Source of the DNA: Trichodelitschia bisporula
Lineage: Eukaryota
Direction: 5' to 3'
NCBI GenBank assembly: GCA_010356995.1
Contig: ML996688.1
Span: forward strand, 992,001-1,056,000
DNA: 64,000 nucleotides
Positions 2,018 to 20,273 of this stretch are shown here, in pieces (position 1 is the stretch's first letter; every line of letters begins with the position of its first letter). Made by a program: the position numbers and the translations under genes. Under the pieces are notes generated by a model. That model had not been told where the DNA came from and made no database searches. It saw only the letters and a list, made by a program, of their open reading frames with translations.

Positions 2018-5000
2018 TTCTGCGCTGTGCGGTGTGAAGTTTCGAATGGGGGCGATGGGCGGCGGTCGAATCGGGTCCAGCCAGCTGGATGATGCGGTCA
2101 ATGGAGCATGAGAGGAGTCTATAATCGGAGTGACATCAATCTGGTGCGATTATGGCGGCTATTCGGGGCGATGCGCGCAGCGCAGTGAATACTCGCAAAT
2201 TGGTTATGTTGGTGGTCGGTGGTGGTTGGTGGGTGGCGCGAGGCTGGGGCGGGCGAGGTCGGATGGGTTGCTATCGTCAAAGGACCATTGAGCAAGAGTT
2301 AAAAAGAGGGGAAAGGGAAAGAGAGAAGATAATCGTCGGTAGCACAACTTAAGTCAACGACCGCGATAACGGAGCAAAGAAGACCGGAGTTCAGCGCGCG
2401 CCCGCGCAGGCAGTATACATAGTATTGGATGTCGGGAGGGGGGATCGCTGGCAGATGGACTGCCAACCTCTCAATCACCTCTTCCTGGCCCCGCGGCGTC
2501 GTTTCCGACCGGGGCTATACGCAAGGTCCAGAGGAGCGACGGCCTATCGCATGCTTCGGCTGAAAGATGCGCCTGCGCACCCACCGATGGAGGGGCGGGG
2601 GTGCCATTGGCCGGACCGAGAGCCACTCCGGGGGGCTGCCCATTGCCTATGTGATGGGAACTGGCAGTGAGCCCGTTTTCGAGCCTGCTCATAGGGTGAG
2701 CTGTACGAGCTGGTGCGGGCCATGCGCTTCCTGGCAATGGGTGTGGATTCAAACACACCCTTCCCCTTCGATAGTGCCCCTCTTGCGTTCAACGGTCTCC
2801 AGACACTGCGCACACTTGCCCTCACTTTGCTACTGCACATCTTTGCGTGAACTGCACAGTGCAGAAAGTGTAAAAGCTTGCCGACGCATCCCGGTTCAAC
2901 GCCGCTCGGTTTATGGACTGGGATGTCGCTTGTTGGCGTGGCTTTGGGCGGCACTGAGGCCATGGACATTGGCCATTGCGGCCACAGGCTGTGGCGTTTT
3001 AGGCATGGCCTGTGGGACAGTTGAGTCCGGCAGGAAGCCGGCAGTGATCGCACTGCAGACGAGCAGCGCGCAATCATGCTCCATCCCCGGACTTTAGAGG
3101 AAGGAGACCCGAGAAGCGATCGTCCCTCCCCGTCTCCGTTGAACCCGCTTCGTCGTGTTTCAAGCCGAGCAGGTCAACCGAACATCAACAAGCAGCACTC
3201 AAGCACGCGGCTAGCCACGCAGCGCATTGCTTGCTGTCCACATGCCGATGCTTCAGTTGGTTATGTGTCAGTGCGGGAGGCCGATTTACAGACCCACTGC
3301 AAGACTCGAGTTCGAAGCATGCCCGCATCACCGGACCTCGCCGTTGGCCACAGCATTCACCGCATGCAAATCCTCCGCAGAGACGGGGGGGGCTGGTGGG
3401 GGAGCAAAAGTGGCGGGGTGTGGCCGTTCGGGGCGTGAGGGGATAGTGCCCGTCGATGGGCCGCGCGGGCGCCAAAACACAAATCGACCAGTCAAGATCC
3501 CGCACGGAGCGCAGCGTGCGCAGGCAGGCCTGGCCCATCCGCCGCTGCCCGCACCGAAGCATTCACATCCTAACCCGCTTCCGGCCAAGCGCATCGCGAT
3601 TTGAATGCAACACGGCGCAGGCGGTCCGCCGTGTGGCTTCTGTCGTGCTTTGCGCGTGGCGGCCGTTCCCTGCCATTCGCTGCAGAGGCGGGGACTGTCC
3701 CGGTCGAAATACGGGCGGGCGCGCAGGCGGGGACTTGCCGCGGGTTTTGCGTGGGTGCGGGCAGGGAAAGACCCGTGGGTCACCCGCTTAAGCGCTGGCG
3801 CTATTGTTGATCGAGGGGTGCGATGGCACACGCCGCGGGCTGCACATATCCTACCCATCCCCCACACTATCGCCACCTTTCTTTTTTATCTCGTCTGGAC
3901 GACGTCGATTGTCGAGGCCTGCGGATTATCATGATGAATATATAGCTGCTGTGACTTGTACTTCTATTCGCAAAGGGAAATGGTGGACGCGAAGATGCAG
4001 TCGTGGAGGGCCATGGCCTCGCACCGGTTGCTCAAGATGAATATGTTAAGCAATAACGGCTTCACCGCTCTCTCTTCCCGTCTTCTTCATCTCCTCAAGC
4101 GCTTCGTCGACTCGACGTTATCTTCGCAAGCGCCCGTGACGAAAGATGATGCACTCCATGGCGTGCAGTCTGCCATGCGTCAGAAGCGCCGGCAGTACGG
4201 GGCACGGGAGGATCACAACAACGCTCAGTCTCACACCCACGAGCCTCCCCCACATCAGCCCTACACTCGTCCTCTGGCGACAGCCCACACGCGCTGACCA
4301 TCCGCTTTGGGACGTGTGATATTCAGGCCACCACGGAGCCTAGGGTGCGCAACCCCTAATGCCCTGCGGAAGCCTTCATGTACCCCTCATCCCCCCTCTG
4401 CCGACACGGCTAGACCACATAACCTGGCGGCTATCAGTGCGAGTGCGCGAGTTCGCGAACCGACTGAGTCGTTGTCCTTGGTCGGCATGCCGTGATGCCG
4501 GGGACTAGACTGCAGCGGGGAGAGCTGCTGCCCCGCATGTGAACGCTTACAGTTCTAAAAGACCTCGATTCAATGACGACGGTCTCCCACTAGCCTCGAA
4601 AGCGCAGGTGCCGACACCCTCCGCATATCGACACTAGAACTAGCACTTGATATCGCGAACACTCCACCATCACATACGCCGCGAAGCGAGCCCCCATCTC
4701 GCCCCGCGATTGGCAGCACCGATTTCCCAATCCAGCTAATGGCGAGAGCGAAGTGGGGTACACACGCCCAGGACCAAGCACTAGGCGAAGAAGTCATGAC
4801 CCGCATCTCCCACCTCTTTTCCTGAGCGATACGCAAAGCATACCGGGGTATGGCAGCCATGACTTTCGCTCAGCCCTGGCCACACCTCCGGAGAATTATC
4901 CTCCGCCCGCAGCCCTCCTCCCTCCTCACCAGAGCTTCACAGCCTGTCCCCGCGAACCTAACTCAGATGGCAGGTGCAGGTGGCAACACGCCGCAACCGC

Positions 5001-5995
5001 GACTCGCACGCACCTGCCCGGCGCAGCCGCTCGCCAGCTGCTCCTTCAATAAGGTACCCCGCATCAGCCAAACTCCTCGCCCCAGGTCTCTCCCGTTTGG
5101 CCGTAGCCAGCTGCAACAACTTTCCTCCTAACCCTGACCTCGGCACCCGCGCCGATCGCGCGTATCTGCTCACTGACACGGAGTCCCTTGGCCAATGACG
5201 TCCGCACGACGTTCCGGGCCCGAACCCGAGCGTCCGTTTTGCCCTGTCTGCTGCGCGCGGAGGGCGAGCCGGATGCGGCGCGGTCTGCGTATGATGGTGA
5301 GCGGCGCGGTAAGGGAGGGAGAGCCAGTACCCGCGGGGTAAGGGTGTGATTTGGAAGGGTCACGTGGGGCAGGGACAAGGCTGAGATGGATATGTGGGTT
5401 GGGATGAGGACGGTAAGGCTGAGAAGCTTTGTTGAATGCAGTCATGGTGGAGATGGGCGTACGGTGGAGCGGAGGGTGCGTGTTGGAGCTCGGTTGGAGG
5501 TTTGGATCGGCGGGGATGAAGTGTCGACAACGGAAGCGGCGAGAATGGCGAACGACTCACCTGGGTTAGAGTTGGATGAGGTTGTTTGGGTTTTGAGGGC
5601 ACTGGATTTGATTCAGTGTTGTGTTGTGCTTTGGACAAAGACTGACTTACCAGGTAGACAGCGGATAGTCCAAAGTCGAGCGGCAGTACGAAGGATTACA
5701 GTGGAGTAGACAGCAAAGTCACAATCCTACTTCTGCACTATTCACCACTATCCCTCTATCGTCCGGTCCGTCGAGCATTCTTCAGGATTCAGAAGTCTGT
5801 TATCACTTTCACACCTCAGCGTCAGCCGAGCCATATATCACAGTAGCATATGTCACGAGCTCCGACTTCTGGATCATCACCAGATTCAGTTTCACAATTC
5901 CATTAATCACACCTAACAACATGCGAGCAGCAACCCGGGGTACACCATTGATGCCGACAATTCAAATTCCCGAATCAAGCCGTCTCCACCCCACC

Positions 5996-6832
5996 TCAAT
6001 TACGAGTATTTCTTTGCCCCCCCTTGTCCATGTCGAAGCCTGGGACAATGTAGCAGTTCATAGGAGCATAGACCGCCCACGGAGTGTCGAGAATGCTGGT
6101 ATCGATGAACCCGTTGTTGAAGGGATGACCGGCGACTTGGCTGCCATTGTACGTGCTGGCACTGGCCGAGCCGCCATTGAACGTACCGGTTCCGACATAA
6201 CCAGTCGCGGGACCACCGGCAGGAGCCCAAGGGGGTGGCGCGCTGGCAGTGAGGCCACTGGCCGAAGGTGCGATGGGATAGGTGTACGAGGGCTGCCAAC
6301 CGCCAGTAGGGAATATGCCCGGACGGTTGATACCGACATACTCCCATCCGGAACTTGGTGGGGCAGTCTGAAGCGTGCTGGCACCAAATCCGGTAACGGG
6401 CGCACCCGCGTTGAGTATGCCGGCACTGAGGGTACTAGTCCCGACAGTTCCCAATACCCCCGGGCGATTACTGAGCACCCCGGGAGCACTGTTGACGTTC
6501 CCGGCTGGCTGCTTTACCGTCTTCCGGCGCTTGACTCCCGAAGCCGGCCCGTCGTCTTTGGCCTCCTTTCGCGGTCTCTTCCGCCCCACCGCACCATAGC
6601 GCTCTGCGCACAGTTCACATACTTCCATGCACTCTCCCTCTGAGGCACTCCAGGCACGCTGTACCTGTAACCCTTTTTCGGTGTTATAGTCGATGAAGCC
6701 CCCGAGGTTGAGCCATCTCCGGCACTTGTGGCACCGGTTTTGGCCGTCGCCGCGCGACTGGTTGTCGTTGGGCCTGTTAAAGAGAAGTTGGGAAGGAGTC
6801 TCCGAGGGCCTGGTGGGAAGCATTGATGCCAT
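5996..6832 (-). CDS. Array copy A1: unknown 4-Cys putative zinc-finger/NLS protein, 278 aa
   Basis: QSRGDGQNRCHKCRRWLNLG...VQRAW...VCELC, then RKRPRK and VKRRKTV. Clearly homologous to the neighbouring copies. Confidence 0.75.
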   Translation of the reverse strand: MASMLPTRPSETPSQLLFNRPNDNQSRGDGQNRCHKCRRWLNLGGFIDYNTEKGLQVQRAWSASEGECMEVCELCAERYGAVGRKRPRKEAKDDGPASGVKRRKTVKQPAGNVNSAPGVLSNRPGVLGTVGTSTLSAGILNAGAPVTGFGASTLQTAPPSSGWEYVGINRPGIFPTGGWQPSYTYPIAPSASGLTASAPPPWAPAGGPATGYVGTGTFNGGSASASTYNGSQVAGHPFNNGFIDTSILDTPWAVYAPMNCYIVPGFDMDKGGQRNTRN

Positions 6833-7483
6833 TTCGCCCTCCTTGGTTATGTGCGTGAAGGCAAGAGTGGCGGAACGCCGAGGGAGGCTGGCAAACGGAG
6901 AACTGGCAGATGCCAGGATTGAATGACGCCTGGCTGGATGAGGCTGTTAGCTCATATACTAGAGAATCATATCGCGAGTGGAAAGGGAGAGCGGGAAGTG
7001 AATACCAGGTAGCCGGGAGTGTAGATCGCAAGATCTTGAAGTGTATCGCGGGAACTTCGAGTAAACGGTGAGAATTTTCGAATGAGAGTTGCAGGCTTTG
7101 AGTGCAGACTGGAGAATGATGGTGGAACGTTGTGCTGCGGATGGCTGGAGGTCGGCGATTCCACTGTGATGCTAGGTAGTCGACTATCGATCGCTGGTGA
7201 ATGATCTTCGGAATATCTCGACATGTATACACAGCTCTAGCGCCGGCGGCGGTTCCGGGGCTGCAGCTTCTATGCGTAAGTCGATGAAGTGTAGAATGCC
7301 AGGGAGGTTCTACTTGGCAACTGTAGTTCTGTAGGTAATGGTTAGCGATGAAAGCTCTCGGAGTACCTCGTCGAATATATGTGGCTCTCAAGTCTTGGCA
7401 AGGTGTGCCTTCTCCGCTCACAAATCCTTCAAACGAACGTAGCTGTGACTCGGTAGTTGACACTCATCTTCCGAACAGAAGCC

Positions 7484-7583
7484 AAACGCGAAGTTGAGAG
7501 TGTTCATCAGGCTGAATGCCCCGGATTGGCCAAACACCTCAGCCTTATTATAACCTCCGCCAGGTCACAACGTCGATAAGCCA
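7484..7583. promoter_or_regulatory. Conserved upstream block, copy 1 (AAACGCGAAGTTGA ... GGATTGGCC = CCAAT on minus ... CGATAAGCC), upstream of A1
   Basis: The same block recurs at ~10476, ~15364 and ~18444. Regulatory function is inferred. Confidence 0.6.
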
Positions 7584-8143
7584 GCTGCAACAGTACAATC
7601 CAATGCTTGGTTGACGTTGGGAGATTAAACGAATTTCTGTAATTGTAAGGACGTTGATGATAGAAGAAGAGAGGAGAAGAGCAAACGCAAAACTGAATTA
7701 CAGCATGGACCCTCCACATTCGTTCCTTCCTTCATTACTTCTTGGCGTACGCCATCTACACAGAAATCCTTGCCTCCATACTGTAGTAATCCCTGCCATG
7801 CTGAGCGGCTTCACGCGAGCACCACCAGCCATATCAGCAATAATTATCTTCAGTTCCATCAGTTGTTCAATCTGTCTAACATTCAGAGCATGCTTAGGCA
7901 GTCACTTATGCCACTTATGTCACTTTTACACCTTGGATCTATATATCACAGCATTAATGTTCACACGTTTCACTTTCAACTACCATCAGATCCCAGGATA
8001 AAATTTTCCATTCGTGTTTTAAGGACAAACTCAAGAACAGTGATCCAGATCGAAACCTCGCTACCGCGACTCAGCTACCCTTACCGCGAGTCTCGGCATC
8101 ACCGTGAGCCTTCCCCTTCGTCGAGTCACCCTGGTTTGTCAAA

Positions 8144-8664
8144 TTATGGGTTCTCGGCGAGCCATCTCAAGAGAACCTCGGCAGTCTCCTCATCGGTGAG
8201 CCCCCGCGGCTCAGCCAGAGTCTCTTCCGTACCCGAAGGTTCTGGCGGACCAGGGGCCATGGTACCAGGCGCGCTGTCACCCACCACTCCCGGAAAGCTG
8301 CTCGCGCCCGTAGCCGAAGGAGTACCATAGACGGTCTTCCGCCTCTTCAGGCCCGTGTCCGGGCCCTCGGCCTTCCGCTTCTTAGGCTTTTCAGCGAGCT
8401 CATCTCCGCCGGTGGCCTTCGGCTTTGCGCGGGAGGGCCTGTTTGCTATCCGGACGGTGCATTGCTCACAGCAACAGTACCAGCGACTCTTCTTCCATGT
8501 GCGGGGAACATGCTCGCCGCGCTCTAAGGGGTTAACCAGTCCTTCTCCTAAGTAGAACCATTTTCGGCACTTTTGCATTTTTCGCGGCCATCAAAGCGCG
8601 ACTGGCTGTCTGGTGGGCGCTCTCCAGGAGCATGCGGTGGGCTCGGGGGGTTTGAGGGTTTCAT
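8144..8664 (-). pseudogene. Array copy A2: frameshifted paralog (1-nt deletion inside the first CxxC)
   Basis: ATG at 8664 gives MKPSNPPSPPHAPGERPPDSQSRFDGREKCK. The sequence TGC-AAAAG-TGC (around 8567-8577) is one base short of C-x2-C. The other frame continues CRKWFYLG...RTW...RWYCCCEQC...LKRRKTV. Confidence 0.7.
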
Positions 8665-8757
8665 CCCTGAGTAATGGAAGGGTTGTCGGTGGGGAGAAGG
8701 AAGGCCGTGTGGAAGGGGGTTCGGCTTATAAGTTAGGGATCCATGTCGGAAGTGAAA

Positions 8758-8880
8758 GGCGAGAGCTGGGGAGTGAAGAATGGAGAGCTAGGATGTGAAG
8801 CACGGAGAGCTGAGAGTAAACAGTGGAGAGCTGATAGTGAATTGTGGAGAACCTATAGTAAGTGGTGAAGAACCTGTTGA
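8758..8880. repeat. Imperfect ~21-23 bp tandem repeat (GGAGAGCTG...AGTGAA-like), about 6 units, upstream of A2
   Basis: Recurring gagagctg / gagagcta / gagaaccta cores at regular spacing. Confidence 0.55.
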
Positions 8881-9315
8881 CAAAGAGTGCTCTATAGGCA
8901 GCTTCAGTGAGCCTCGAGTGAACGTTGTATAATCATGTGGTACATGAAGTAAGGTTTGGAGAGCGATGAGAAATAGCTATAACCTTCGATTCCTCAACGA
9001 GAACCCAATTCTGTTTGAAGGTTAATGCTAATGCTAGGTACAAAGATGAAAGCCTAAGACCGCAAGAGTCAGGCATAGAGACCTGCATAGGAGACGCAGT
9101 AGCAGACGTAGCACGAGCCGAGGGCAATCCCATCTCCACATCCCCATCACCCGCCTTCACCTGCTTAACCGCAGACCGAACCGAAGGCGAACTCATCTCA
9201 ACATCCGCATCGCGCCATCCGAATCAAGGCATGTCTGCAGCACCGTACTTATCCTCCTTCTTGTCCTCAGTTTTGGCGAGGTCCTTCGGAGCAGAATCTG
9301 TCAAGAGCGGATCGA

Positions 9316-10038
9316 TCAAAGCGGCGTCCACCGGATAGCAGAGGAATGGCGGCCGTTGAGGGTGTCGGCATCGGGGGTACGTGCATCAGGTTCGGTGGCA
9401 CCGAAGGTCTCCGTCCACGGCGCGTCAGCAGCAAAGGTGCTCGCGGGGAGTGTCCAGGTACCGGTGATGTAAGGGAGAGATGTACCGGCCGGGAGTGTCT
9501 CCGGACGGAGTTTACCGGGGTAGTACCAGCCGGAACTAGACGTTTCAGTAACCAGCGGGCCCATACCAACCTCGCCAGTAGCGACCACCTCGGGAGTACT
9601 CGTGACTTCCCCGGCCGGCATCTTTACCGTTTTACGGCGCTTGACTTCCTGGACCGGCTCGTTACCGTTGTTCTCCTCGGGTCGCAAATCCTCCTTTGGT
9701 CTTGAGTTCCTCTTTCGGCGCGAGGTCTCCTTTGGGGGTGAGTTCTCCTTTGGTGGAGACTCTTTCCGCGAGTTCTCTTTTAGCCGCGCCCCCTTCCGCT
9801 TGCGCTTCCTGCCAATATTATACTCCCTGCATTGCTCGCACCTACTCATCCAGTACCCATCCCAGGCGCGCTGGACGTACGGCTCCTTCTCGGCGGGGTT
9901 GGTGGGCTGGCCCGGGCCGAGGTAGAACCATCTATTGCATCTACCGCACCGGGGGCGCCCGTCGCTCCTGCTTTGGCTTTCGGGAGGCCGGTCTGAGGGG
10001 GGCTGAGAGGGGGGCGGCGGGGGGTTGGAAGGAAGCAT
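9316..10038 (-). CDS. Array copy A3: unknown 4-Cys putative zinc-finger/NLS protein, 240 aa (tail probably frameshifted; alternative-frame stop at 9224)
   Basis: QSRSDGRPRCGRCNRWFYLGPG...VQRAWDGYWMSRCEQC, RKRKRK, short KENSPP-type repeats, VKRRKTV. Confidence 0.75.
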   Translation of the reverse strand: MLPSNPPPPPSQPPSDRPPESQSRSDGRPRCGRCNRWFYLGPGQPTNPAEKEPYVQRAWDGYWMSRCEQCREYNIGRKRKRKGARLKENSRKESPPKENSPPKETSRRKRNSRPKEDLRPEENNGNEPVQEVKRRKTVKMPAGEVTSTPEVVATGEVGMGPLVTETSSSGWYYPGKLRPETLPAGTSLPYITGTWTLPASTFAADAPWTETFGATEPDARTPDADTLNGRHSSAIRWTPL

Positions 10039-10475
10039 CGTTGCCGTCTTCAGTTTTGCGTCCGAGTGTGAGAGACGTACGGTTCCGAGGAGCTTGACCG
10101 GTGAGGAAGTTGTTAGAGGATAGGATTGTTGGATGCATCCTCGTTGGATGAGTGGCTTGTTAGCTTATACTGAAGTTGAGTCGGGAGGAACTGGTGCAGA
10201 GCCTACAAATGAGGAAGTGCCTTTCAGTGTCGGCTTTGATGAGATTGGAGTAAATTCTGAGTAACGGTGTAGTATCCGGCAGTCAATACTTTGGAGAGCA
10301 ATGCCGTGGAGTGGAGATATCAACAGTCAGAGGAAGGTATACATGGTGACCGATGGATGGCTTGGCAATTTTTGCTGGTTGATGCGCTAGGCATACATAC
10401 TTTATCAAGACTTGCGTCCGGAAGTTGGAGCTGTATATGCATCACAAGATATTCCGAAAGCTGCTGACAGGAGAT

Positions 10476-10580
10476 AAACGCGACGTTGATACATTTGTGA
10501 AGCGCCCATCAGGCTGAACACCCCGGATTGGCCAAACGCCACAGCCTTAAGCCCTGCCAAGCCACGCCAGGGGAAAGCCA
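10476..10580. promoter_or_regulatory. Conserved upstream block, copy 2, upstream of A3
   Basis: aaacgcgacgttgata ... caggctgaacaccccggattggccaaacgccacagcctt; the GATAAG part is degenerate here. Confidence 0.6.
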
Positions 10581-11013
10581 ACCGTTATTAATAAAACCTA
10601 AAAGTAACGATCCGAGTCACATCAGCATCTACGGAAGGTAGTAATTGAGATGTGGGTGGATCAAGGCAAAGGCAGAAGGAGAGAAAAGAGGTTGATTGCA
10701 TTGCACATGGGGAGTTCAGGTGAGAATCTAATCACTCAATGAAGCGTCGACTGTCAAGGGTCACTGGTGACAACGGGAGGTTGCAGAATGACGTTCGTTG
10801 AAGGCGATGTGATGATTAAGAATTCTGGCTAGTCCAGAATTCGCTAAATGCACAGGTCCACCAAGCTAATCCACGCGTCCTAAGGCCACGTGATGTCAGC
10901 GGGGTCTGACTATGCATGTGCTCCATAACATTCACCTAGAGATGGAAGATTGCGGTCAATGGCCAGTTTTCTCGTGATCAACGGACGCTCAGGATGTCGA
11001 CACTTCCGGATTC

Positions 11014-11799
11014 CTAGAGTATGCCCGTCCATTCAACACCATCCGAGCTGACTAATCTCATCGGTCCCCAATTGGCATTGCTTGATATCCTCGGGTTCGG
11101 ATCCTCCGTGGGGTCCTGGAGGCCCGGATCGACCACCGAGTTGTTGACGGTGTGAGTAAGGGTATGACTGTCAGCCGGGTCCTGAGTGCTGGGTGTAATG
11201 GGGCCAGGCACACCGGCACCCAGTGAAACTGCAGGGAATCCATTGGCATCGAGAGTTCGAGCCGCCTGAGTACTCCGAGCGAGGATCCCAGTGAGAAGCC
11301 CAGGGTTGTCCAAGGCATACGGCAGGCTCGTTGTCCTAGCGGGTTGAGACTCGGGATAGGGCGCTCCGAAGTAGTGCTCGCTCGCACCGAGCGTGCTAGG
11401 AGCAAACGGAGAGATGCCGACGGGCCCTGCGTAGCTTGAACTGAGCATACCAACACCGACGGCCGCAGCATTGGACGTGGCTATGGTGTTCCCGGTTACG
11501 TTGGCGGTCTTGAGGCGCTTGGTGGCTTTCGTGTTGCTGGCAGGACCTTGCGTTTTGGACCCCTTCCGTTTCCGATTGTTCTTCTTATATCGATCACAAC
11601 TGGCGGTGCATGCCTCACACTGCGACAGCCAGAGGCCGTTCCTCCACATGCGACGGACGGCGCGACCGGTAGTGCTGGAAGCGCCACCTGAAGAGAATAA
11701 CTTCCGGCACTTGCTGCAGAACGGTGACAGCTCTTTCCCGGATTCGCTGTTAGAGGGACGAACCGGGTCAGGGCTTGGGGCGGCGCCTGAAGATTCCAT
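11014..11799 (-). CDS. Array copy A4: diverged 4-Cys putative zinc-finger/NLS protein (an upstream in-frame ATG exists at 11910)
   Basis: FCSKCRKLFSSGG...VRRMWRNGLWLSQCEAC, RKRK, TKRLKT and VVDPGL near the C-terminus. Start 11799 chosen to match the leader length of the paralogs. Confidence 0.7.
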   Translation of the reverse strand: MESSGAAPSPDPVRPSNSESGKELSPFCSKCRKLFSSGGASSTTGRAVRRMWRNGLWLSQCEACTASCDRYKKNNRKRKGSKTQGPASNTKATKRLKTANVTGNTIATSNAAAVGVGMLSSSYAGPVGISPFAPSTLGASEHYFGAPYPESQPARTTSLPYALDNPGLLTGILARSTQAARTLDANGFPAVSLGAGVPGPITPSTQDPADSHTLTHTVNNSVVDPGLQDPTEDPNPRISSNANWGPMRLVSSDGVEWTGIL

Positions 11800-12616
11800 T
11801 GCTGCAAGTCCGCTCTGCTCAGCTTTCGGTCGGAGGAGTGAAAATGGAGCACGAATATGTGGAGAGAAGGGAGGAGTGGTGATAATAGGTGCTGTAAACA
11901 ATAGAGACATCCTAAAGAAGTTGCTGATAGTAAGAAAAAATGTTGGGGGTGCACAGGAGAAAGCTGGGAAATAAATGGTGGAGAACCTACGGACGAGCTA
12001 ATACCAGAAGTCTGGAACTGACTTTGGGGAGCGAGGTATCTTGTTGAGTATGGTGGGGGGGGAGGGCGGTTTGCGAAGTGGAGAAATCGATGGTAAAAGT
12101 GTGGACGCAATGGAAGTGATAGTGAACCATTGCGGCCTCCGGGTCCACTTCTTGGCGATATATAGAATGCTACAGAGGCATTCTGCCACTTGTGTGTTGA
12201 CGAGGTGATGGTTTGTGACCGAAGGTTCTGGCTTGGCAGTTGTCAGTCTCGGGTTGTTTGATAGTATAGAGTTTGACTCACTGGCAAGAACATATACAGC
12301 CGAGCTAGAGATTAAAGTAGCTGATCTCCGCAGGTCAGAGAGCGACTCTCAGCCCTGCCTCCGCGGCATGTATGTAGTATCCCTTGCTCTTCCGGTCCAG
12401 CCATATTATATCAGTTTCGTACCTTAGAAAGTCAGCGAAGCCATATATCAATAGGAAATAGTTAGCAGTTTTGATTCCCCGACGAGTACGAGATTCCAGT
12501 TTCGAGCTTTTTGATTCGTAAGTAGACTAGAAGCTATCCGGATCGGCCACCTCACATTGCGCCTCACTTCCCCTCAACCTCATCCTCGGCATCGGAGTTC
12601 AAAAGAGCGGGATCTA

Positions 12617-13330
12617 TCATATCCTCGGGAGAGCATGGCAACCAGAGTCAGGTGTACTAGCACCGCCAGCGCCGAGTGAAGCAGCATCAGATGGACCGGC
12701 ACCGCCAACGCCAAGTGAACCAGCATTAGATTGACCGGCACCGAACGTTAGAGCCGACGACACACTCGCTGTGAGGGTGTTGGTATCGAAGATGGAACGA
12801 AAGACTGGACCCGCGGTCCGTGCCTCAAGTGTAGAGATCTCGGCATAGCGGGTGCTGGAACCAGGTATGTCGGGAGCTAGAGCGCCAGTACCGGCCAGTC
12901 CGGCATCAGTTGTACGAGAAGTGAGCGCGCCGGCACGAACCGTATCAGTACCGATAATCCCCACAGAGTTCCCGGTGTCTATGGCCGTATTATGCTTCGT
13001 CTCCTTCGTCTGCTTCGCGTTCTCCCTCTCCGGTCCCTTCGCGCCCTTGGTAGGCACCTTGCCGTCCTTGCCGACGCGTCTCGACTTCTTTTGTTCCCGG
13101 TAGCGCACCGTGCGGGCGCCGCATTGCTCGCACATCTTGAGCCACCGCCCCTCCTTCCACAACCGCCGGTTTTGCGGCCCGGGCTCAGCGGGATCTTGCG
13201 GACCTGGACCTAGGGAGAAGCGCCTGCCGCAACTGTTGCACCTCACACGCCCGTCGTCGCGGCTTTGGCTGTCGGGAGGACGACCAGAGGGAGGGTTTGG
13301 AGGAGGCTGCGGGGAACCTGCTGGAAGCAT
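12617..13330 (-). CDS. Array copy A5: unknown 4-Cys putative zinc-finger/NLS protein, 237 aa (tail probably frameshifted; alternative-frame stop at 12564)
   Basis: QSRDDGRVRCNSCGRRFSLGPGPQDP...RRLWKEGRWLKMCEQC followed by KKSRR. Confidence 0.75.
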   Translation of the reverse strand: MLPAGSPQPPPNPPSGRPPDSQSRDDGRVRCNSCGRRFSLGPGPQDPAEPGPQNRRLWKEGRWLKMCEQCGARTVRYREQKKSRRVGKDGKVPTKGAKGPERENAKQTKETKHNTAIDTGNSVGIIGTDTVRAGALTSRTTDAGLAGTGALAPDIPGSSTRYAEISTLEARTAGPVFRSIFDTNTLTASVSSALTFGAGQSNAGSLGVGGAGPSDAASLGAGGASTPDSGCHALPRI

Positions 13331-14192
13331 TGCGGCTATGCGGTGAAATTGGATCTCTGCTCAAGGATTAGAAGAAGTCCCAGGCTGGAGGAGATATGAA
13401 GACGGGCTGTAAGGACGAGGTGAAGTAGTGCTAAGGGGGTTTGTGTTATATAGTAGAGATTCCAGTCGGAAGTGAATAAGAGCCGGGAGAAGCGAATGAG
13501 GAAGAGCTGGGAGTAGACCAAAGAGGGGCAATTAAAGAAGTAAATGTCAGAGAGCAAGGAATCATTAGTGGGGACTTACAAGTAAACAGCAGAGCGCTGG
13601 AGTGAGCTTTCGCTGAACGGTGGGTAGAATATTGAAAAGATGATTGTGTCCTGGAGGTAACAGTAAATGGAAGAAGATATGAAGTGAGTGGCACGTTGCC
13701 ATTGAGGTTCTCGGCACATTATAAATACTGTGTGGTGCTCCGTGATGGAAGTAATTGTGTTGGGATTTCGGCTTGGCAATTGATACTGGGTGATTGTCCG
13801 TGATGGAAGTATTTGTCTGGGCACTTCGGTCCTGGTTGTTTGTGAGGGGTACGGGGAATTGAATTACTGGTAAGGACTTGTATTATCGGGTTAGAGATCA
13901 GAGGAGCTGATCACCGCAGACCGAAGCGAGTATCAGTCCCGCTTCCGCGGTGGCTACATAACAGTTCCGCTCGTCTGTGCCATCTAACATTCTCCACAGG
14001 CTTCAGCAGTTTCATGTATCACTTTAGCACCTTGAGCAGTTAGCGAAGTTACATATCAGCAGCAGATACTGACAAGTCTCGATGTCTCGTGGGCACCAGA
14101 TTTTATTTTAACAATTTTCATTAATAACAAGTACCGATGGAAGAACAACTGTGCGTACCGGTGGAAGAACACTATGCGCACGGAGCTATTCC

Positions 14193-14858
14193 TTAATTCT
14201 CTTCATCCTCACCTTCGGCAGACTCCCTCAGGCGGGGATCGATGACAGCGTCGTCCAGAGGACGGCGCCTCGGGGCCATTCTACGCCTAGAAGCCGTCTT
14301 ACCCAAGAGCGTACTAGTATCGGGCGTGGGAGCTGACCTTGCACTGGTGCCGGGGGTGTAAGGAGACGGCCCGGGAGGGAAGTACGGACTAGAAGGGGGT
14401 AAGCCAGAACCGGGGCCGTCAGGATAACGCCTACCAAAGTCGTAACCACTACGAGTAGGCGTGCTAGAACTAGTGTCGACTACTTCAGCAGCGGGCGTAC
14501 CCGAGCCGAGCGTGCCGGCACTGTGACCCTTGGCCGTCTTGCGGCGCTTCGGAGTCTTCGCCGGCTTGTCATCCTGAGCATCCTCCGCGGCTTGCTCCTT
14601 CGGCTCCTTGGCCGGCGCATCGTCAGTCCCACATTCAGTCCTTTTCCTCTTTTTTTTCTTGCCAATACGCTACACTCTTGTCCTTGCACCCCTCACATTT
14701 TGCGAGCCAACGGCTGCCGTTCCAGGCGTGGCGAACGTAGTCTCCGGGCTCCGTGGTGGGATTCTAACCCAGACCCAGCAGGAAATGGCGATTGCATGCG
14801 CAGCATTCACGCGATCGTCAGGCCGCGGAAGAGCGTCAGAAGGGCGTGGGAGCGACAT
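14193..14858 (-). pseudogene. Array copy A6: pseudogene with two frameshifts and a nonsense codon in the domain
   Basis: The ATG frame gives MSLPRPSDALPRPDDRV. A shifted frame gives CCACNRHFLLGLG*NPTTEPGDYVRHAWNGSRWLAKCEGC (TAG at 14766-14764). The ATG frame resumes with KKKKRKR...PKRRKTA...VIDPRL...EEN* (stop 14193). It is absent as a single ORF from the track. Confidence 0.8.
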
Positions 14859-15363
14859 AACTGCAGTTCCCGTTCGGTGCGTGAAGAGCGAGGGGAGAAG
14901 TACTGTTTGGTATTGAGGGGAGCTGTTAGCTTATATACTGCAGAATCATGTTGGAAGTGAACGGGAGAGCCTACGAGTGGGACAGAATGCTTTTCATAGT
15001 GAGTTTCGGCGGAGCATATGATGTCGGGATATCAAGGTAAAGAGCGATGGTGAGGAGTGAAGATATTAACAGTAAGAGGTACCACCCCGTAAACGATCGA
15101 ACACTTGGCAATCACCGACAGTTCAAGCTTTTGGAGTATCTTGTAATGTACATATGGCTCCGGCTTCTGGTCACCAGGTTCGGGAAGATAGATTGCCATC
15201 GAGGTGCTCGGTAACTGGGTGAAGGCCCGCAAGGGAAGCTCTCAGAGTATCTCGTAGTACTTATACGGCTCACAATCTCAAGTCTTAGCAAGGTCTCCAA
15301 TCACAAATCCTTCAAACAAACCTGCTTATGACCAATTAAGCGTAACTCTTACGAACAAAAGTC

Positions 15364-15462
15364 AAACGCGAAGTTGATAGACTCGCCTAGCTAAGGCGGA
15401 ATGCCACAGATTGGCCAAACCCATCAGCCCTGAGCCCAGATCAGCATGCTATCGATAAGCCA
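15364..15462. promoter_or_regulatory. Conserved upstream block, copy 3, upstream of A6
   Basis: aaacgcgaagttgata ... aaggcggaatgccacagattggccaaacccatcagccct ... cgataagcc. Confidence 0.6.
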
Positions 15463-16190
15463 AGCCAACCCCAGCTGTCGTATTGAGAGGCAAGTATTTG
15501 ATGCGAGCAGATCTTAGGTCCAGGCAGATGAAGAGAGATGTAAGTAATTCAATTGAGTTGAGAAAAGTAGACTCAATAATGTGTCGACTGGGAGTGGTGT
15601 AGCAGCAGAGAAGGTAGGTAATAAGGCCAACATTGATATTATATGACTGAATAAGACATGGAAGGTACGATATAGAACAGTATAACGCGACTAAAGGATG
15701 AAGGAAGGTGCGAAGTAAGGACGCACGGTATTTTATATATAGACTTAAGGGGCCTCGGGCTCCTCTTCTCCTCTTCGTCTTTTAATTAATTTCGCAATAA
15801 CCACATTGTACCCACGTGCCGTGAGCCCGTCCTTACAGCAGAGAGTGGGAAAGCCGGCTTCGGAGGCCGGAAGAACGTCCTCCCAAGTCATATGCACCGG
15901 AAAGAGAGTTATCACAACACGTCGCGCAGTAAAACACCAAACCGCATAATCATGACCACCATGACCGTCCTTCAACACTCTCCAAACAGCAATCAAAACC
16001 TGGTGAATGGTCAGGGAGGTTGAGGGAAAAGCTTTGAAACAATGCAATCGGCTAACGATCATCTGTATCAATAAGTTATTTGAGAGGGTACATGAGACAA
16101 GGCAGTTAGCGGAGCCATATCATATCAAGCAATGGCATGTTCCAACTTGGAGGCATGAAGCGCGTATTCGAGAAGCGTCAAGTACGAAGC

Positions 16191-17936
16191 TCAGCTTCCA
16201 AAGCGCCAATCCTTTATATCCCCCATACACTGGTCCTCCTCGGCATCTTCCTCATCATCTGCATCCTCCGCACGCTCAGTATCCTCCGCACGCTTAGTAT
16301 TTCTCTGCCTATGATTCAGCGGCTCCTCATCATCGGCGACATGCTCGCCCATGCACATATCTTTGTGACAAATAGGGATGTCGCATGTCAAGCAACCCCA
16401 TGTAGTACTTGGGGCACGCACTCGCCGTTGTCCCTGCCGGATACTTTGCACGCTCAGCTCCGTCAGCGCCTTCCTCCACGAAATTCTGTGCTGGCGGAGG
16501 CGACCGGCACGCACACAATACCGGCAGCGTTGGAACTTCCTCTTACCAAAGACGTGTTCAGACCATCCCCTAAGGATGAGGGGCATCTGATTTGAAGGAC
16601 GGCCCGGATTTTTAAAACTCCCCGCGGCTGTGGTAGGCGTACCCGAGCCGAGCGTGCCGTTAACGGAAGTCCAGACCGGCGGCTTGATAGTGGTCGGCGC
16701 ATCGACTGGCGATGCGCTAACCTCAGAGGTGTCGGACAAATCTGATGAAAAGCGAGGGACGCTAGAAGCGGATATGGAAGAAGGGTGATCACTGAAACCT
16801 CGCGCCGCGGTAGTAGGCGTACCCGAGCTGAGCGTGCCGTTAACGGAAGTCCAGACCGGCGGTTTGATAGTGGTCGGCGCATCGACTGAGGATGCACTAA
16901 CCTCAGAGGTGTCGGACAAATGTGATGAAAAGCGAGGAACGCTAGCAGCGGATATGGAAGAAGAGCGATCACCGAAACCCCGCGCTGTGGTAGTGGGCGT
17001 ACCCAAGCCGAGCGTGCCGTTAACAGAAGTCCAGACCGGCGGCTTCATAGTGGCCGGCGTATCGACTGGGGACGCGCAAGTCCGAGAGGTAGAGGTGTGA
17101 CGAAGGGCTGGGAAAGGAGGGAGAACGCCAGGAGAAAGCATAGGAGCATTAGGAGCACCAGGAGCGAGGATAGGAGCTCCAGGAGCGTGTAAAGGAGGGC
17201 TCGGGGCGAACGAAGAAGAATGGCGGCCACCGAAACCTCGAGCGGCTGCAGGAGATGTACCTGAGCCGTGTGCGGCAGCAGGCGCGGCAGCGCAGGCTAG
17301 CGAGGTATCAGACGTACCTGAGCCTAGCAGGCTTGCGTCGCTCGTGGCATTTACTGACTTATGGCGTATCACTCCTTTAGGCGGCTCGTTGTCACCTTCA
17401 TCCTCCCTTTCCCGCTTTTTATCATTGTCGGCCGGCAGCTCGTCGTATTTAGCCTCCCGTTTCCTCCTCATGTAGTCCTTGTTTCGGTCCCTGCACGACT
17501 CACACATTAGGAGCCAACGGCCCATCAAGCCATCCCACGCGCGTTGAACATGCCTCGCAGTCTCGTTCGGGTCATGTGGGCCTGGACCTAGAGAGAACCA
17601 CCCGCAACATCTTTTACACCGGCTCAGACCACCTTCGCGTGATCTGAGGTCTGAAGGGCGGGCTTCATCTTCCTCCTGCCCCTTCTTCCGCCTTGTCCAC
17701 TTTGCGTATCGTTCATTTCGTCGGTTTCTGCACGCCTCACAATTTTGGAGCCAACGTTTGTTCCACGCGCGTCGAACAAGCTTGGCGCTCTCGACCGGGT
17801 CGTGTAGGCCCGGGCCTAGATAGAACCACCCACCACAACCAGTGCACTGGGGCTGATTGTCTTTGCGTGATTGGAGGTCTGGAGGACGGTCTGGTGGTTG
17901 ATTTGGGAGAAGATCAGGGGGGTCGGAGGAAGCCAT
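16191..17936 (-). CDS. Array copy A7: chimeric 581-aa protein with two family zinc fingers, ~2.5 x 60-aa repeats and a C-terminal piggyBac-transposase-like Cys-rich domain
   Basis: CTGCGGWFYLGPG...RRAW...RWLQNCEAC and CKRCCGWFSLGPG...QRAW...RWLLMCESC. KPPVWTSVNGTL occurs three times. The C-terminus reads EHVFGKRKFQRCRYC...TTWGCLTCDIPICHKDMCMGEH. Confidence 0.75.
   Translation of the reverse strand: MASSDPPDLLPNQPPDRPPDLQSRKDNQPQCTGCGGWFYLGPGLHDPVESAKLVRRAWNKRWLQNCEACRNRRNERYAKWTRRKKGQEEDEARPSDLRSREGGLSRCKRCCGWFSLGPGPHDPNETARHVQRAWDGLMGRWLLMCESCRDRNKDYMRRKREAKYDELPADNDKKREREDEGDNEPPKGVIRHKSVNATSDASLLGSGTSDTSLACAAAPAAAHGSGTSPAAARGFGGRHSSSFAPSPPLHAPGAPILAPGAPNAPMLSPGVLPPFPALRHTSTSRTCASPVDTPATMKPPVWTSVNGTLGLGTPTTTARGFGDRSSSISAASVPRFSSHLSDTSEVSASSVDAPTTIKPPVWTSVNGTLSSGTPTTAARGFSDHPSSISASSVPRFSSDLSDTSEVSASPVDAPTTIKPPVWTSVNGTLGSGTPTTAAGSFKNPGRPSNQMPLILRGWSEHVFGKRKFQRCRYCVRAGRLRQHRISWRKALTELSVQSIRQGQRRVRAPSTTWGCLTCDIPICHKDMCMGEHVADDEEPLNHRQRNTKRAEDTERAEDADDEEDAEEDQCMGDIKDWRFGS
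16340..16615 (-). mobile_element. Probable piggyBac-family transposase C-terminal fragment (Cys-rich zinc-binding domain) fused in frame to A7
   Basis: Pattern H-x9-CxxC-x(n)-TxxxCxxCxxxIC-x4-C-x3-H matches my recollection of the piggyBac CRD. No DDD catalytic core is visible nearby. Confidence 0.55.
16621..17090. repeat. Coding tandem repeat, 180-bp period, ~2.6 units
   Basis: Near-identical blocks begin at 16621, 16801 and 16981 (ggcgtacccRagcYgagcgtgccgttaacRgaagtccagaccggc). Confidence 0.95.
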
Positions 17937-18443
17937 AATTCCTGATGAGGTCTGGCCGGCTCTGCCCGTGAGGATGAGCGGAAGTCGGAGGACCCGAGGA
18001 AATATAAAGAAGTGAGGTGTGAAAATATGGAGGGATATGATGCTGACGGGGATCAGTTATATGCTAGAGAATTCATGCCGAAAGCAAATGGTCAAGAGAC
18101 GGGAGCGTATACCTTAGAACGATGTGATGTTGTTAAGCCAATTGTGGAGAGTGATGTCGTGGATTCGAGAGCGACGCGGCGAGCTGTCGCTTGGGGACTG
18201 GTGCTCATTAACTGAAGCCGTCTGCGTATGTCATCGTATAGATGTAGCTCCGGGTCTTACTCCTAAGTTCTGACGAGGTACAAATGTCATAGAGGTGCTG
18301 CTAGGAAAAGCTGATGCTCCCTAGCTGATGTACCATGATCGGCTCGCACTCGCAAACCATGGTAAGTTGCACAGTCTCCACTAACATATCTGTCAGAAGA
18401 AAGTGATGACCAAATAATCGTTACTTCCCTATGAACTGAAGCC

Positions 18444-18549
18444 AAACGGGAAGTCGATACCCCCACAGCTCCCAAGGCTGAACCCCCCGGATTGGCCGAA
18501 GCTCTCAGCCTTAACCCGACGCCAAGGCCACTACCCGTATCGATAAGCC
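18444..18549. promoter_or_regulatory. Conserved upstream block, copy 4, in the divergent A7/RRP43 intergenic region
   Basis: aaacgggaagtcgata ... aaggctgaaccccccggattggccgaagctctcagcctt ... cgataagcc, ending ~105 bp before the RRP43 ATG. Confidence 0.65.
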
Positions 18550-18654
18550 CACCCCAGTCGGCGCGCAGAAAACACCAAACCGCATCTTCACCACCACAAC
18601 CTCTCCCCTCAACAATAACCCTCCAAACAACCGCACAACCACACAACCACAACA

Positions 18655-19680
18655 ATGGCAACAAAAACCGCCCCTCCAAACCCCCACCAAACCCCCCTCT
18701 CCTTCCCCGCCCCCGTATTCGCAGCCTTCACCCCCTCCGCCTTCCTCCTCGCACACCTCCAACCCACAACCTCCACCCCACCCTCCCGGCCCAACACCCG
18801 CACGCCCCAGCAACCCCGCCCGCTCGCACTCAACACCTCCGCCCTCACCCACAGCAGCGGCAGCTCCGTCGCGCGCCTAGGCGGCACCGCGGCCGTAGCA
18901 GGCATTCGGGCCGAAATCTTGCACGCGCGGAACATACCCGAGCCGCCCGCTATCGACCTCGACGCACCAGACACCGACGACCCGAGCGCGCCGCTGGAGC
19001 CGGATTTTGCCCTCCCCATTGTCGTTCCGAATATCGAAATCGCAGGCGCGGCGCCAGGATTGGTCGCGGGCCAGGCCCCGAGCAGCCGCGCACAAGCTCT
19101 CGCCGCACGTGTCCTCAGCTTACTCCACCTTACGCGGGTGATCCGCGCGAGCGACTTGCGTATAACACGAAAAGCGGTGAACGAGGATGGGGAAGAGGAG
19201 GAGGTGCTCGCGGGATACTGGGTGCTGTACATCGACGTACACGTCATATCCGCGGACGGGAACGTATTCGACGCGATCTGGTTCGCCATCCTCGGCGCGC
19301 TGCGTAACGCGCGCTTACCCCGTGCTGCCTGGAACTCGGACAGCGAAAGTGTTATCTGTGATGCGGATCCAGCGTCTCTTCGGCCGTTGCGCCTGCGGGG
19401 TAACCCGGTCGCGGCTTCATTTGCAGTTTTCGAGCCTGCGCTGGAGAAGGGGTTGCGCGACGAGAAGGGCGTTTGGGTGCTGAATGATCCGGATGGGTTT
19501 GAGGAAGGGGTTTGTAATGGGCAAGGTGTGACAGTAGTCGTGGATAATGGTGTTGTGAGACGGGTTGAGGGGGTGGGTGTACAAGGCTTAGGGGAGGGGT
19601 GGGTTGAGGAGGTTGTGAGGTTAGCGGTGGAGAGGTGGTCTGAATGGATAGGGGCCGTTGGGGTGGGTGGAGGGGAGTAA
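18655..19680 (+). CDS. RRP43: Exosome complex component Rrp43 (RNase PH-like), 341 aa
   Basis: AFLLAHL...R...LNTSALTHSSGSSVARLGGTAAVAGIRAE, YWVLYIDVHVISADGNVFDA and DPDGFEE are typical of fungal Rrp43. Confidence 0.85.
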   Translation: MATKTAPPNPHQTPLSFPAPVFAAFTPSAFLLAHLQPTTSTPPSRPNTRTPQQPRPLALNTSALTHSSGSSVARLGGTAAVAGIRAEILHARNIPEPPAIDLDAPDTDDPSAPLEPDFALPIVVPNIEIAGAAPGLVAGQAPSSRAQALAARVLSLLHLTRVIRASDLRITRKAVNEDGEEEEVLAGYWVLYIDVHVISADGNVFDAIWFAILGALRNARLPRAAWNSDSESVICDADPASLRPLRLRGNPVAASFAVFEPALEKGLRDEKGVWVLNDPDGFEEGVCNGQGVTVVVDNGVVRRVEGVGVQGLGEGWVEEVVRLAVERWSEWIGAVGVGGGE

Positions 19681-20273
19681 GTGATGTGGTGGAGATACAG
19701 CCCGGCTTACAGCTCCTACAGACAGCGGCGGAGAGAGTAGATTTCAGGCGCTCTGCGGCGGATGCGGTGCGTCAGAGGAATCTAGAACTAATGTTTTCCG
19801 CCGTACATCGGGCTTTGCGGGCTCGATTATGATCCTCTTGCCGTATTTCGATACGCCCCCCGGATGTCTGCCTGCCGCCTTGAACTTCACCATGCTGAGT
19901 ATTTCCACTTGCTCGACTATTTGACCGCTTTTCTCTTCGAGCACCGCTTTGACATCTAGACTGAGGTTGAAGTAGCTGATTTGGATGGGCTGCGGAAGAG
20001 GGATTCGGTCTGTGAGGCGTATCCCCATACGTCATACGCCCATATAAATCAGGAGCGATGGGCTTTCAGTCAAATCAGCACCTCTGCGGCGTATCAGGAA
20101 AAGGAATCACACTCGACAGCACAGCACAGCATCAAGAGCACGACCCAGAGCAAGCAATCTATTCCATGGCTACATGCACACATATCCTAACCCGCCCCGT
20201 CGCTAAAACGAAGCGCGGTCCCTAAGACTCCAGATACCTTTTCTCCAACCCCCTCCCCAAACCAAGCTCTTGC

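Follow-up and report, generated by a model that had tools for sequence, protein, structure and literature searches.

The window studied here is a 64,000-nucleotide (nt) stretch of Trichodelitschia bisporula contig ML996688.1 (positions 992,001 to 1,056,000), and all coordinates below count from its first letter. It contains a tandem array of seven minus-strand units, A1 to A7, that carry a small domain with four conserved cysteines. Five units are uninterrupted open reading frames (ORFs) within 5996-17936, and two are broken. The family is old; it has a constrained core, tails that are loosely constrained yet coding, and continuing copy loss. If the interpretation given below is right, the C4 zinc modules of the array form a new sequence family, and as far as the data reach it is confined to the T. 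bisporula lineage.

We predict that the array encodes small basic zinc-binding nuclear proteins whose target is nucleic acid, whose tails have diversified and whose genes share a control module. We place this interpretation at a probability of roughly 45% because zinc binding, nuclear location and binding target are all inferred, the first two from motifs. The four cysteines would form a knuckle-plus-helix module around one zinc ion, and the basic stretches would carry the protein into the nucleus. The zinc module and its basic helix may bind nucleic acid, most probably DNA, and the variable tails may recruit different partners. The paralogs would then be a diversified set of lineage-specific regulators, and an upstream module centred on a CCAAT box would put four of the units under common control. 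If true, this is a small regulator that multiplied in place, conserving a core of 65 residues and a promoter or leader module while the rest drifted.

Units and domain architecture of the array

The seven units are listed here with their predicted zinc domains, lengths in amino acids (aa) and scores from a profile hidden Markov model (HMM).

A1, 5996-6832, minus strand: intact, 278 aa; zinc domain at 6572-6775 (98.8 bits); KRRKT motif at 6509-6535
A2, 8144-8664, minus strand: pseudogene-like, one 1-nt frameshift near 8575; KRRKT motif at 8327-8350
A3, 9316-10038, minus strand: intact, 240 aa; zinc domain at 9793-9990; KRRKT motif at 9619-9645
A4, 11014-11799, minus strand: intact, 261 aa; zinc domain at 11572-11760 (85.8 bits); no KRRKT motif
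A5, 12617-13330, minus strand: intact ORF, 237 aa; zinc domain at 13085-13282 (105.1 bits)
A6, 14193-14858, minus strand: pseudogene with two frameshifts and a TAG; KRRKT motif at 14529-14552; domain fragment at 14638-14763 (32.4 bits)
A7, 16191-17936, minus strand: intact, 581 aa; zinc domains at 17694-17888 and 17457-17660 (102.1 and 103.3 bits); VIRHKSV motif at 17349-17372

A1, A3, A4, A5 and A7 each read from ATG to stop in the standard code. The A4 ORF runs over 11014-11910, with an inner ATG at 11799 that gives the 261-aa protein, and A4 is the most divergent copy. The A2 frameshift falls in an A-run between the first two cysteines, inside the first CxxC. It is unlikely to be an assembly error, because a cDNA-like contig (7824-8721) carries the same sequence without gaps, with the reservation that the run may come from the same strain. 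The A6 lesions are frameshifts near 14806 and within 14638-14660 and an in-frame TAG at 14764-14766, where A3 has a glutamine.

When all six frames of the window were scanned for the pattern CxxC...C[EC]xC, six intact motifs appeared, all on the minus strand between 6608 and 17846, with two of them in A7. An HMM built from these six domains was then run over the same six frames. It scored the intact copies at 85.8-105.1 bits and picked up the A2 domain in two frames, at 43.7 and 16.3 bits. Outside the array copies, no stretch of the window exceeds 10.7 bits (E 0.036). There are thus exactly eight domain copies in the window, all within the array and far above chance. The first-pass annotation, made from the DNA letters and their ORF translations, had reported seven minus-strand units with eight domain copies, and the scan and the HMM confirm both counts. 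The breaks in A2 and A6 had been overlooked.

The domain is about 65 residues long and has the form CxxC-x29-34-CExC, with a spacing of x29 in A4 and x31-34 in the others. Eleven columns are invariant in the six intact copies (R1, P2, S7, C15, C18, G25, R41, W43, C51, E52 and C54), and they agree with the consensus proposed at first reading. The intact domains are 31-51% identical to that of A3. In a full-length alignment, with breaks written as X, the order of parts is a Pro-rich leader ending in RPPDSQSRxDG, the zinc module, a Lys/Arg run, a second motif and a tail. The leader, the basic patch, the KRRKT[VA] motif and the Gly/Ser/Thr/Pro-type tails of the earlier description are all present in this alignment.

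RKRKRK-type runs come directly after the last cysteine, and a second KRRK run follows 10-50 residues further on. A motif of the KRRKT[VA] type is present in five of the seven units, as [VLP]KRRKT[VA] in A1, A2, A3 and A6 and as VIRHKSV in A7, and is absent from A4 and A5. We take KRRK to fit a classical monopartite nuclear import signal, and RRKT[VA] presumably fits the site of the cAMP-dependent kinase, R-R-x-S/T followed by a hydrophobic residue. The proteins have a predicted pI of 8.9-9.9. Their tails are 45-55% Gly, Ser, Thr, Pro and Ala and are probably disordered, and the model of A3 in the protein Atlas has a mean pLDDT of 0.45, which fits a mostly disordered protein. A weak motif, SSGW.Y.G..RPE, is common to A1 and A3.

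Three tails contain tandem repeats. In A3 an 18-nt repeat occurs 3.5 times (9691-9753), in A5 a 39-nt repeat occurs 2.2 times (12660-12743), and in A7 a 180-nt (60-aa) repeat is present in 2.5 copies, 89% matching, over 16615-17072. The A7 repeat copies differ by 23 transitions and 7 transversions. Unique to A7 is an extra Cys/His cluster at its C-terminus (16341-16526), C-x2-C...C-x2-C-x3-C-x4-C-x3-H, followed by an acidic tail. This C-terminus has no Pfam match except DUF4611 at E 0.3, no relatives at E up to 0.1 among 137 candidates and no usable match in the protein Atlas; its best match in the Protein Data Bank (PDB) is the TRIM63 B-box at E 0.41.

Around KRRKTV, A1 and A3 (6465-6560 and 9575-9670) share 13 identical codons among 16 identical residues, and in the zinc domain 14 of 30. 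At this motif, 77.5% of their DNA is identical over a length of 80 nt. These figures suggest either a local tract of gene conversion or nucleotide-level constraint.

Exact look-up in the public proteins places the array in T. bisporula; A3 is public protein P0001 and A4 is P0003. A third public protein, KAF2404461.1 (P0002, 374 aa; 12617-14858), splices fragments of the A6 pseudogene onto A5. The public protein collection does not contain the exact ORFs of A1, A5 alone or A7. The public annotation of this locus needs redoing, as A1 and the longest copy, A7, are missing and one model fuses A6 with A5.

Relatives and fold of the module

The first-pass annotation called the family unrecognised and distinct from GATA, Zn2Cys6 and C2H2 fingers, and both statements stand. 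Pfam gave nothing above the gathering cut-off for the five full-length proteins, the A2 ORF or the six single domains. Among single domains, Zn_ribbon_TOP3B scored highest, with 20.3 bits where 27 are required, and the remaining matches cover the knuckle only, at 8-16 bits. A word-indexed search with A3 returned A3 alone among 474 candidates. An exhaustive profile search of 1,835,955,588 representative proteins found three at E up to 0.001, all from this locus, and these three were also the only ones found against longer proteins, among 2,394 candidates at E up to 10. These searches covered annotated proteins, and in libraries of such size a 66-position profile is blind to relatives scoring below about 40 bits. 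No confident match to a described family appeared in the Pfam, profile or AlphaFold/Foldseek searches. Lineage-restricted gene families are common in fungi.

Several candidate relatives were set aside. A metagenome scan with the A3 N-terminus returned four loci that share CGRCNRWF only, with the rest of the domain missing (11.7-14.2 bits), which we attribute to chance. Med16_C (PF20719) matches the A7 double domain at 18.3 bits (E 0.0029, cut-off 21); the single A7 domains give no match, and there is no Mediator chain among the PDB sequence matches of the family profile at E up to 10. GATA (PF00320) scores 13 bits against a cut-off of 26.8 in one of six copies, and the spacing between the Cys pairs is 29-34, not 17-18. 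The loose resemblance to Stc1 noted at first reading found no backing: PF12898 matches none of the six copies up to E 10, only four cysteines are conserved, and the protein Atlas score of 0.75 for an Stc1 cluster is at noise level, lower than shuffled proteins often score. The best Atlas feature score, 0.76, is under the lead level, and the DksA/TraR and ferredoxin structure rows are all under the bar. The literature on T. bisporula (taxonomy and genome surveys) and on lineage-specific tandem zinc fingers yielded nothing on this family.

The AlphaFold model of the domain, from a six-row alignment, has a pLDDT of 60.8. At this low confidence, the first CxxC is predicted to sit on a short hairpin, and residues 36-65 to form a helix that passes CExC and continues into the basic stretch. 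A single-sequence model of the A7 double domain was uninformative (pLDDT 50.4). Foldseek against the PDB gave four rows, all at E 5 or worse and none at E 0.001 or better. A wide fold search with VIA reached a best Z of 4.8 among 48,161 chains, and a search of viral folds in BFVD gave 38 rows, all at E 0.65 or worse.

The best match of the family profile to a solved structure is the papillomavirus E6 zinc domain 2m3l_A (E 0.014, 18.6 bits). Profile positions 6-63, nearly the full length, are aligned, and the two CxxC pairs, LGP and GRW..C all fall in register. A5 alone also has this chain as its top match, at E 0.12. The single domain A7b has no solved-structure match, and the best matches of A3 are transaminases. 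None of the other E6 structures in the structure bank was matched by the family profile. We reject membership of the E6 family (PF00518), as Pfam gives no match at E up to 10 and a single E6 chain is found, below threshold. There is no E6 among the 38 BFVD or the four PDB fold rows, the domain model being too poor to exclude an E6 fold. We treat the sequence resemblance as a chance-level lead. The array module and E6 would share at most a common kind of zinc site, because the E6 zinc site is itself treble-clef-like, as described in an excerpt of PMC4999995.

These matches bear on an alternative role, in which the module is a protein-protein interaction scaffold and the proteins are adaptors like E6 zinc domains or RING/B-box-like modules, with the module or the tails choosing the targets. 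The E6 chain heading the profile and A5 searches, its treble-clef-like site and the weakly B-box-like second cluster of A7 are what such adaptors might show. However, the scores are at chance level given the number of searches, they involve one E6 entry only, and the searches with A7b and A3 and those of Pfam and the viral folds do not repeat the match. The strongly basic flank is also more typical of nucleic-acid binders. We consider the scaffold unlikely and prefer a nucleic-acid-binding module.

Divergence, transcription and neighbourhood

Substitutions were counted by the Nei-Gojobori method in the 15 pairs of the six intact domains, of which four gave no computable dS. Synonymous sites are saturated (pS 0.56-0.83; pN 0.31-0.52). 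The ratio of nonsynonymous to synonymous rates, omega, is 0.15-0.71 and below 1 in each of the 11 computable pairs. The youngest pair is A7a and A7b, the two domains of A7 (dS 0.57, omega 0.71). Transition/transversion ratios of 0.47-1.17 between paralogs indicate saturation, and the paralog tree is a star with none of five inner branches supported and terminal branches of about one change per site.

Median identity is 0.38 in the domain against 0.25 in the tails, which are compositionally biased and unalignable. The five intact tails have no in-frame stops, against 5.2-14.9 in shuffles, and their other frames have 0-31 stops. The probability of an open tail is 0.0005-0.0075, and for A7 none of 2000 shuffles was open.

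This is birth-and-death turnover and not a fast arms race. Turnover of this kind had been proposed at first reading, and we see it in the two dead units of seven, the domain duplication within A7 and the tail repeats of A3, A5 and A7. The disabling of A2 and A6 is recent.

The first-pass annotation went on to suggest genetic conflict (genome defence, meiotic drive or non-self recognition). We regard such a system, with fast arms-race evolution, as improbable. The dead units, the internal duplication in A7 and the expanded repeats would suit such a system, as would tails diverged beyond alignment and the lack of relatives elsewhere. The duplicates are old, however, with saturated synonymous sites and a star tree, and domain omega is below 1 in every measurable pair. 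No HET, NLR, Spok-like, nuclease or transposon domain was found in the units or flanks, and no transposon, defence, drive or incompatibility domain lies nearby. The lack of relatives is expected, as T. bisporula is the single sequenced genome of the order Phaeotrichales. An excerpt of PMC7082219 describes the species as a dung saprobe placed in this order of its own within the Dothideomycetes.

Dinucleotide indices of repeat-induced point mutation (RIP) are mildly raised over A3 (9000-9999) and the A6 pseudogene (14000-14999). TpA/ApT is 1.00 and 1.15 in these two bins, and (CpA+TpG)/(ApC+GpT) is 0.96 and 1.01. Across the whole array TpA/ApT is 0.82, against 0.57-0.68 in the flanks. By the usual thresholds, these are the only 1-kb bins that qualify. 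We reject RIP as the driver of divergence, as transitions are not dominant between paralogs and only two 1-kb bins reach the thresholds; any RIP trace in the array is mild and old at most.

Transcription was assessed from two small runs of one sample in one study, with their type guessed as RNA. Contigs identical to the window were mapped on 5000-20000; their depth cannot rank genes. A joint was accepted only with at least 31 letters on its shorter side. The following introns were found.

6934-7005, minus strand: A1 leader intron, 72 nt, GT..AG with a CTAAC branch site; in both runs, 255 letters on the shorter side
15277-15321, minus strand: intron upstream of A6, 45 nt, GT..AG; in both runs, 118 and 66 letters on the shorter side
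11802-11990, minus strand: probable A4 leader intron, 189 nt, GT..AG, ending 2 nt before the A4 ATG; weak joint

The A1 contig joins 5885-6933 to 7006-7686, and the contig upstream of A6 joins 15159-15276 to 15322-15445. Minus-strand transcription of at least A1 and the A6 leader follows from these joints, because skipped short GT..AG segments are the signature of spliced mRNA. The A4 joint is single, at a depth of 2.3 and with 30 letters on the shorter side, below the limit of 31, and it agrees with the public A4 model. The earlier statement that introns are absent holds for the coding regions and fails for these leaders. Contig 7824-8721 over A2 is unspliced, A4 is partly covered by contig 10778-11314, and the 5' part of A7 is covered (bin 17525-18025). 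A5, the coding part of A6, the middle of A7 and most of A3 have no contig cover, from which nothing follows about their expression. An omega near 1 combined with silence of all copies was not seen, as omega is 0.15-0.71 and contigs lie over several copies.

Two further joints, 10717/10778 and 16008/16075, are bounded by plus-strand GT..AG and have shorter sides of 26 and 29 letters and depths of 2-5. They sit just downstream of the A4 and A7 stops and may come from antisense or neighbouring transcripts. Both are below the 31-letter rule and were not used.

We find it about as improbable as genetic conflict that the units are weakly constrained, young-looking ORFs in decay, transcribed into proteins that do little or nothing. 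Flat GC content at third codon positions (GC3), two dead copies, omega values up to 0.7, long leaders with upstream ORFs and the absence of A1 and A7 from the public annotation are consistent with decay. Against it, 11 invariant columns survive saturated synonymous divergence, five tails are open where 5-15 stops would be expected, and the non-coding module described below is better conserved than the coding DNA.

The neighbours of the array are as follows.

2-2149, minus strand: ferric reductase gene, left-hand neighbour
18619-19677, plus strand: RNase PH-domain (RRP43-like) gene, right-hand neighbour, divergent from A7; its contig begins at 18594

The gap of about 3.7 kb between the ferric reductase and A1 (2150-5900) contains no recognisable protein gene and no Pfam match. 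It has many long ORFs, which are GC-driven, and a cDNA-like contig over 5000-5746 extends past 5000. To the right, 8 kb from the array, a plus-strand ORF at 26442-27719 encodes a Zn2Cys6 transcription factor (Zn_clus and Fungal_trans_2).

A transposable-element origin, with a domesticated or still mobile protein that spread locally, is hardly credible. The Cys/His pattern at the A7 C-terminus is reminiscent of the zinc ribbons of some transposase ends, but comparing 5000-19000 with itself revealed neither terminal nor long repeats flanking the units, and no domain of a transposase, integrase or reverse transcriptase is present. This C-terminus lacks Pfam support, sequence relatives and an Atlas match, and the zinc domain is limited to one array within the window. 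For the A7 C-terminus we reject a transposase-type zinc ribbon, as it has neither a profile match nor an association with a transposase. The likeness to transposon-associated fingers raised at first reading likewise has no backing.

The upstream module and known systems

Self-comparison also showed that A1, A3, A6 and A7 share short matching sequences 470-715 nt before their ATGs. These sequences belong to a module of about 130 nt with three boxes, namely GGCTTATCGA, TAAGGCTGAGG-GTTTGGCCAATCCGGGGCATTCAGCCT and TATCAACTTCGCGTTTGGCTTCTGTTCG. In the TAAGGCTGAGG-GTTTGGCCAATCCGGGGCATTCAGCCT box, a CCAAT box is central in an imperfect inverted repeat. The four copies, with their nhmmer E values, are listed here.

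7464-7592, minus strand: copy 1 (A1), E 1.6e-34; TTATCGA, CCAAT core at 7509-7544, TCAACTTCGCGTTT
10456-10589, minus strand: copy 2 (A3), E 2.6e-32; core at 10511-10546
15344-15476, minus strand: copy 3 (A6), E 4.9e-33; core at 15394-15429
18425-18559, minus strand: copy 4 (A7), E 5.1e-32; core at 18475-18510; in the divergent gap before the RRP43-like gene

A 36-nt core pattern occurs four times in the window against 0 expected. The nhmmer profile of the module finds these four copies only, with nothing else under E 0.9, and a metagenome scan with the 36-nt element gave no matches. The copies are 58-71% identical overall and 71-90% identical in a 41-nt core, whereas the domain-coding DNA is 43-59% identical (67% for A7a and A7b).

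At A1 and A6 the module lies inside spliced minus-strand contigs. The A7 copy occupies the stretch 35-170 nt away from where the contig of the RRP43-like gene begins. The module may be a promoter module or a leader element, both being possible because contigs cannot show transcript starts. An RNA structure was considered and found no support. Rfam has no matches in 5000-19000, RNAalifold on the four copies gives a hairpin around CCAAT with a covariation term of only -0.81 kcal/mol, and the single-fold z-scores are mixed (-1.9, -0.6, +0.3 and -2.9). We prefer to read the module as a candidate protein-binding DNA site, for which the CCAAT-binding complex (CBC) is an obvious candidate. An excerpt of PMC7144946 gives the CBC:HapX motif as bipartite, CSAAT-N12-RWT. 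The array module is not a match to this motif, as it has GCC at the RWT position in an alignment judged by eye. The module offers an experimental handle for finding what binds it and whether it acts as promoter or leader.

A bolder proposal is that the paralogs, acting pairwise (as in the two-domain A7), bind the imperfect palindrome AGGCTGA-N-CCAAT-N-TCAGCCT, a conserved site upstream of four of their own genes. This would make the array an auto- and cross-regulatory circuit, possibly with a lineage-specific recognition or conflict function, and the domain a previously unseen DNA-binding zinc domain. We offer it as a speculation, to be held a shade more doubtful even than conflict or decay.

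Several observations weigh against the prediction of nuclear, nucleic-acid-binding regulators. The structure model is poor and has no fold match, and there is no homologue of known function to anchor the assignment. The nuclear import and kinase-site readings of KRRKT[VA] come from consensus rules, not from a tool. A2, A4 and A5 have no upstream module. GC3 in the tails is 0.55-0.62, with codon-position GC nearly flat, compared with 0.70-0.78 in the ferric reductase and RRP43-like genes, and such flatness is typical of genes under weak selection or with low expression. Omega is 0.6-0.7 in some pairs, and two of the seven copies are dead. The A1 leader contains upstream ATGs, and by eye a 101-codon upstream ORF (6848-7224) starts at 7224, reads through the splice 7006|6933 and ends 16 nt before the main ATG. 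If the main mRNA is the one with the long leader, this ORF would get in the way of translation; it may serve translational control or indicate a main start site located further downstream.

Among known systems, C4 fingers of the zinc ribbon or treble-clef type with a basic C-terminal flank, such as the GATA finger, offer a likeness in their two CxxC pairs for one zinc, with the second pair at or in a helix that enters a Lys/Arg stretch, as predicted for the array module. GATA-type C4 fingers also occur in small basic proteins with disordered tails. The R-x-W, the Glu of CExC and the RP..QSR leader of the array module have no counterpart in the GATA finger, and the fold of the array module is a low-confidence model. 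Stc1 is likewise a small fungal Cys-rich module, a tandem, LIM-like finger, but it has eight zinc ligands compared with the four conserved cysteines here.

The E6 zinc domain (2m3l, CxxC-x29-CxxC) has a Cys spacing identical to that of A4 and close to that of the other copies. LGP follows the first pair in both, and the residues R-aromatic...G-R-W-x2-C-x2-C, which lead into and include the second pair, are in register. It differs from the array, whose host is a fungus and whose proteins consist of one or two modules and a long tail.

The mammalian KRAB-ZNF clusters resemble the array in organization, as tandem paralogs that keep one small zinc module while the rest diverges fast and some copies die. 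Their domain is unrelated in sequence, and the array differs from them in being small (seven units) and old and in having a conserved non-coding module at four units.

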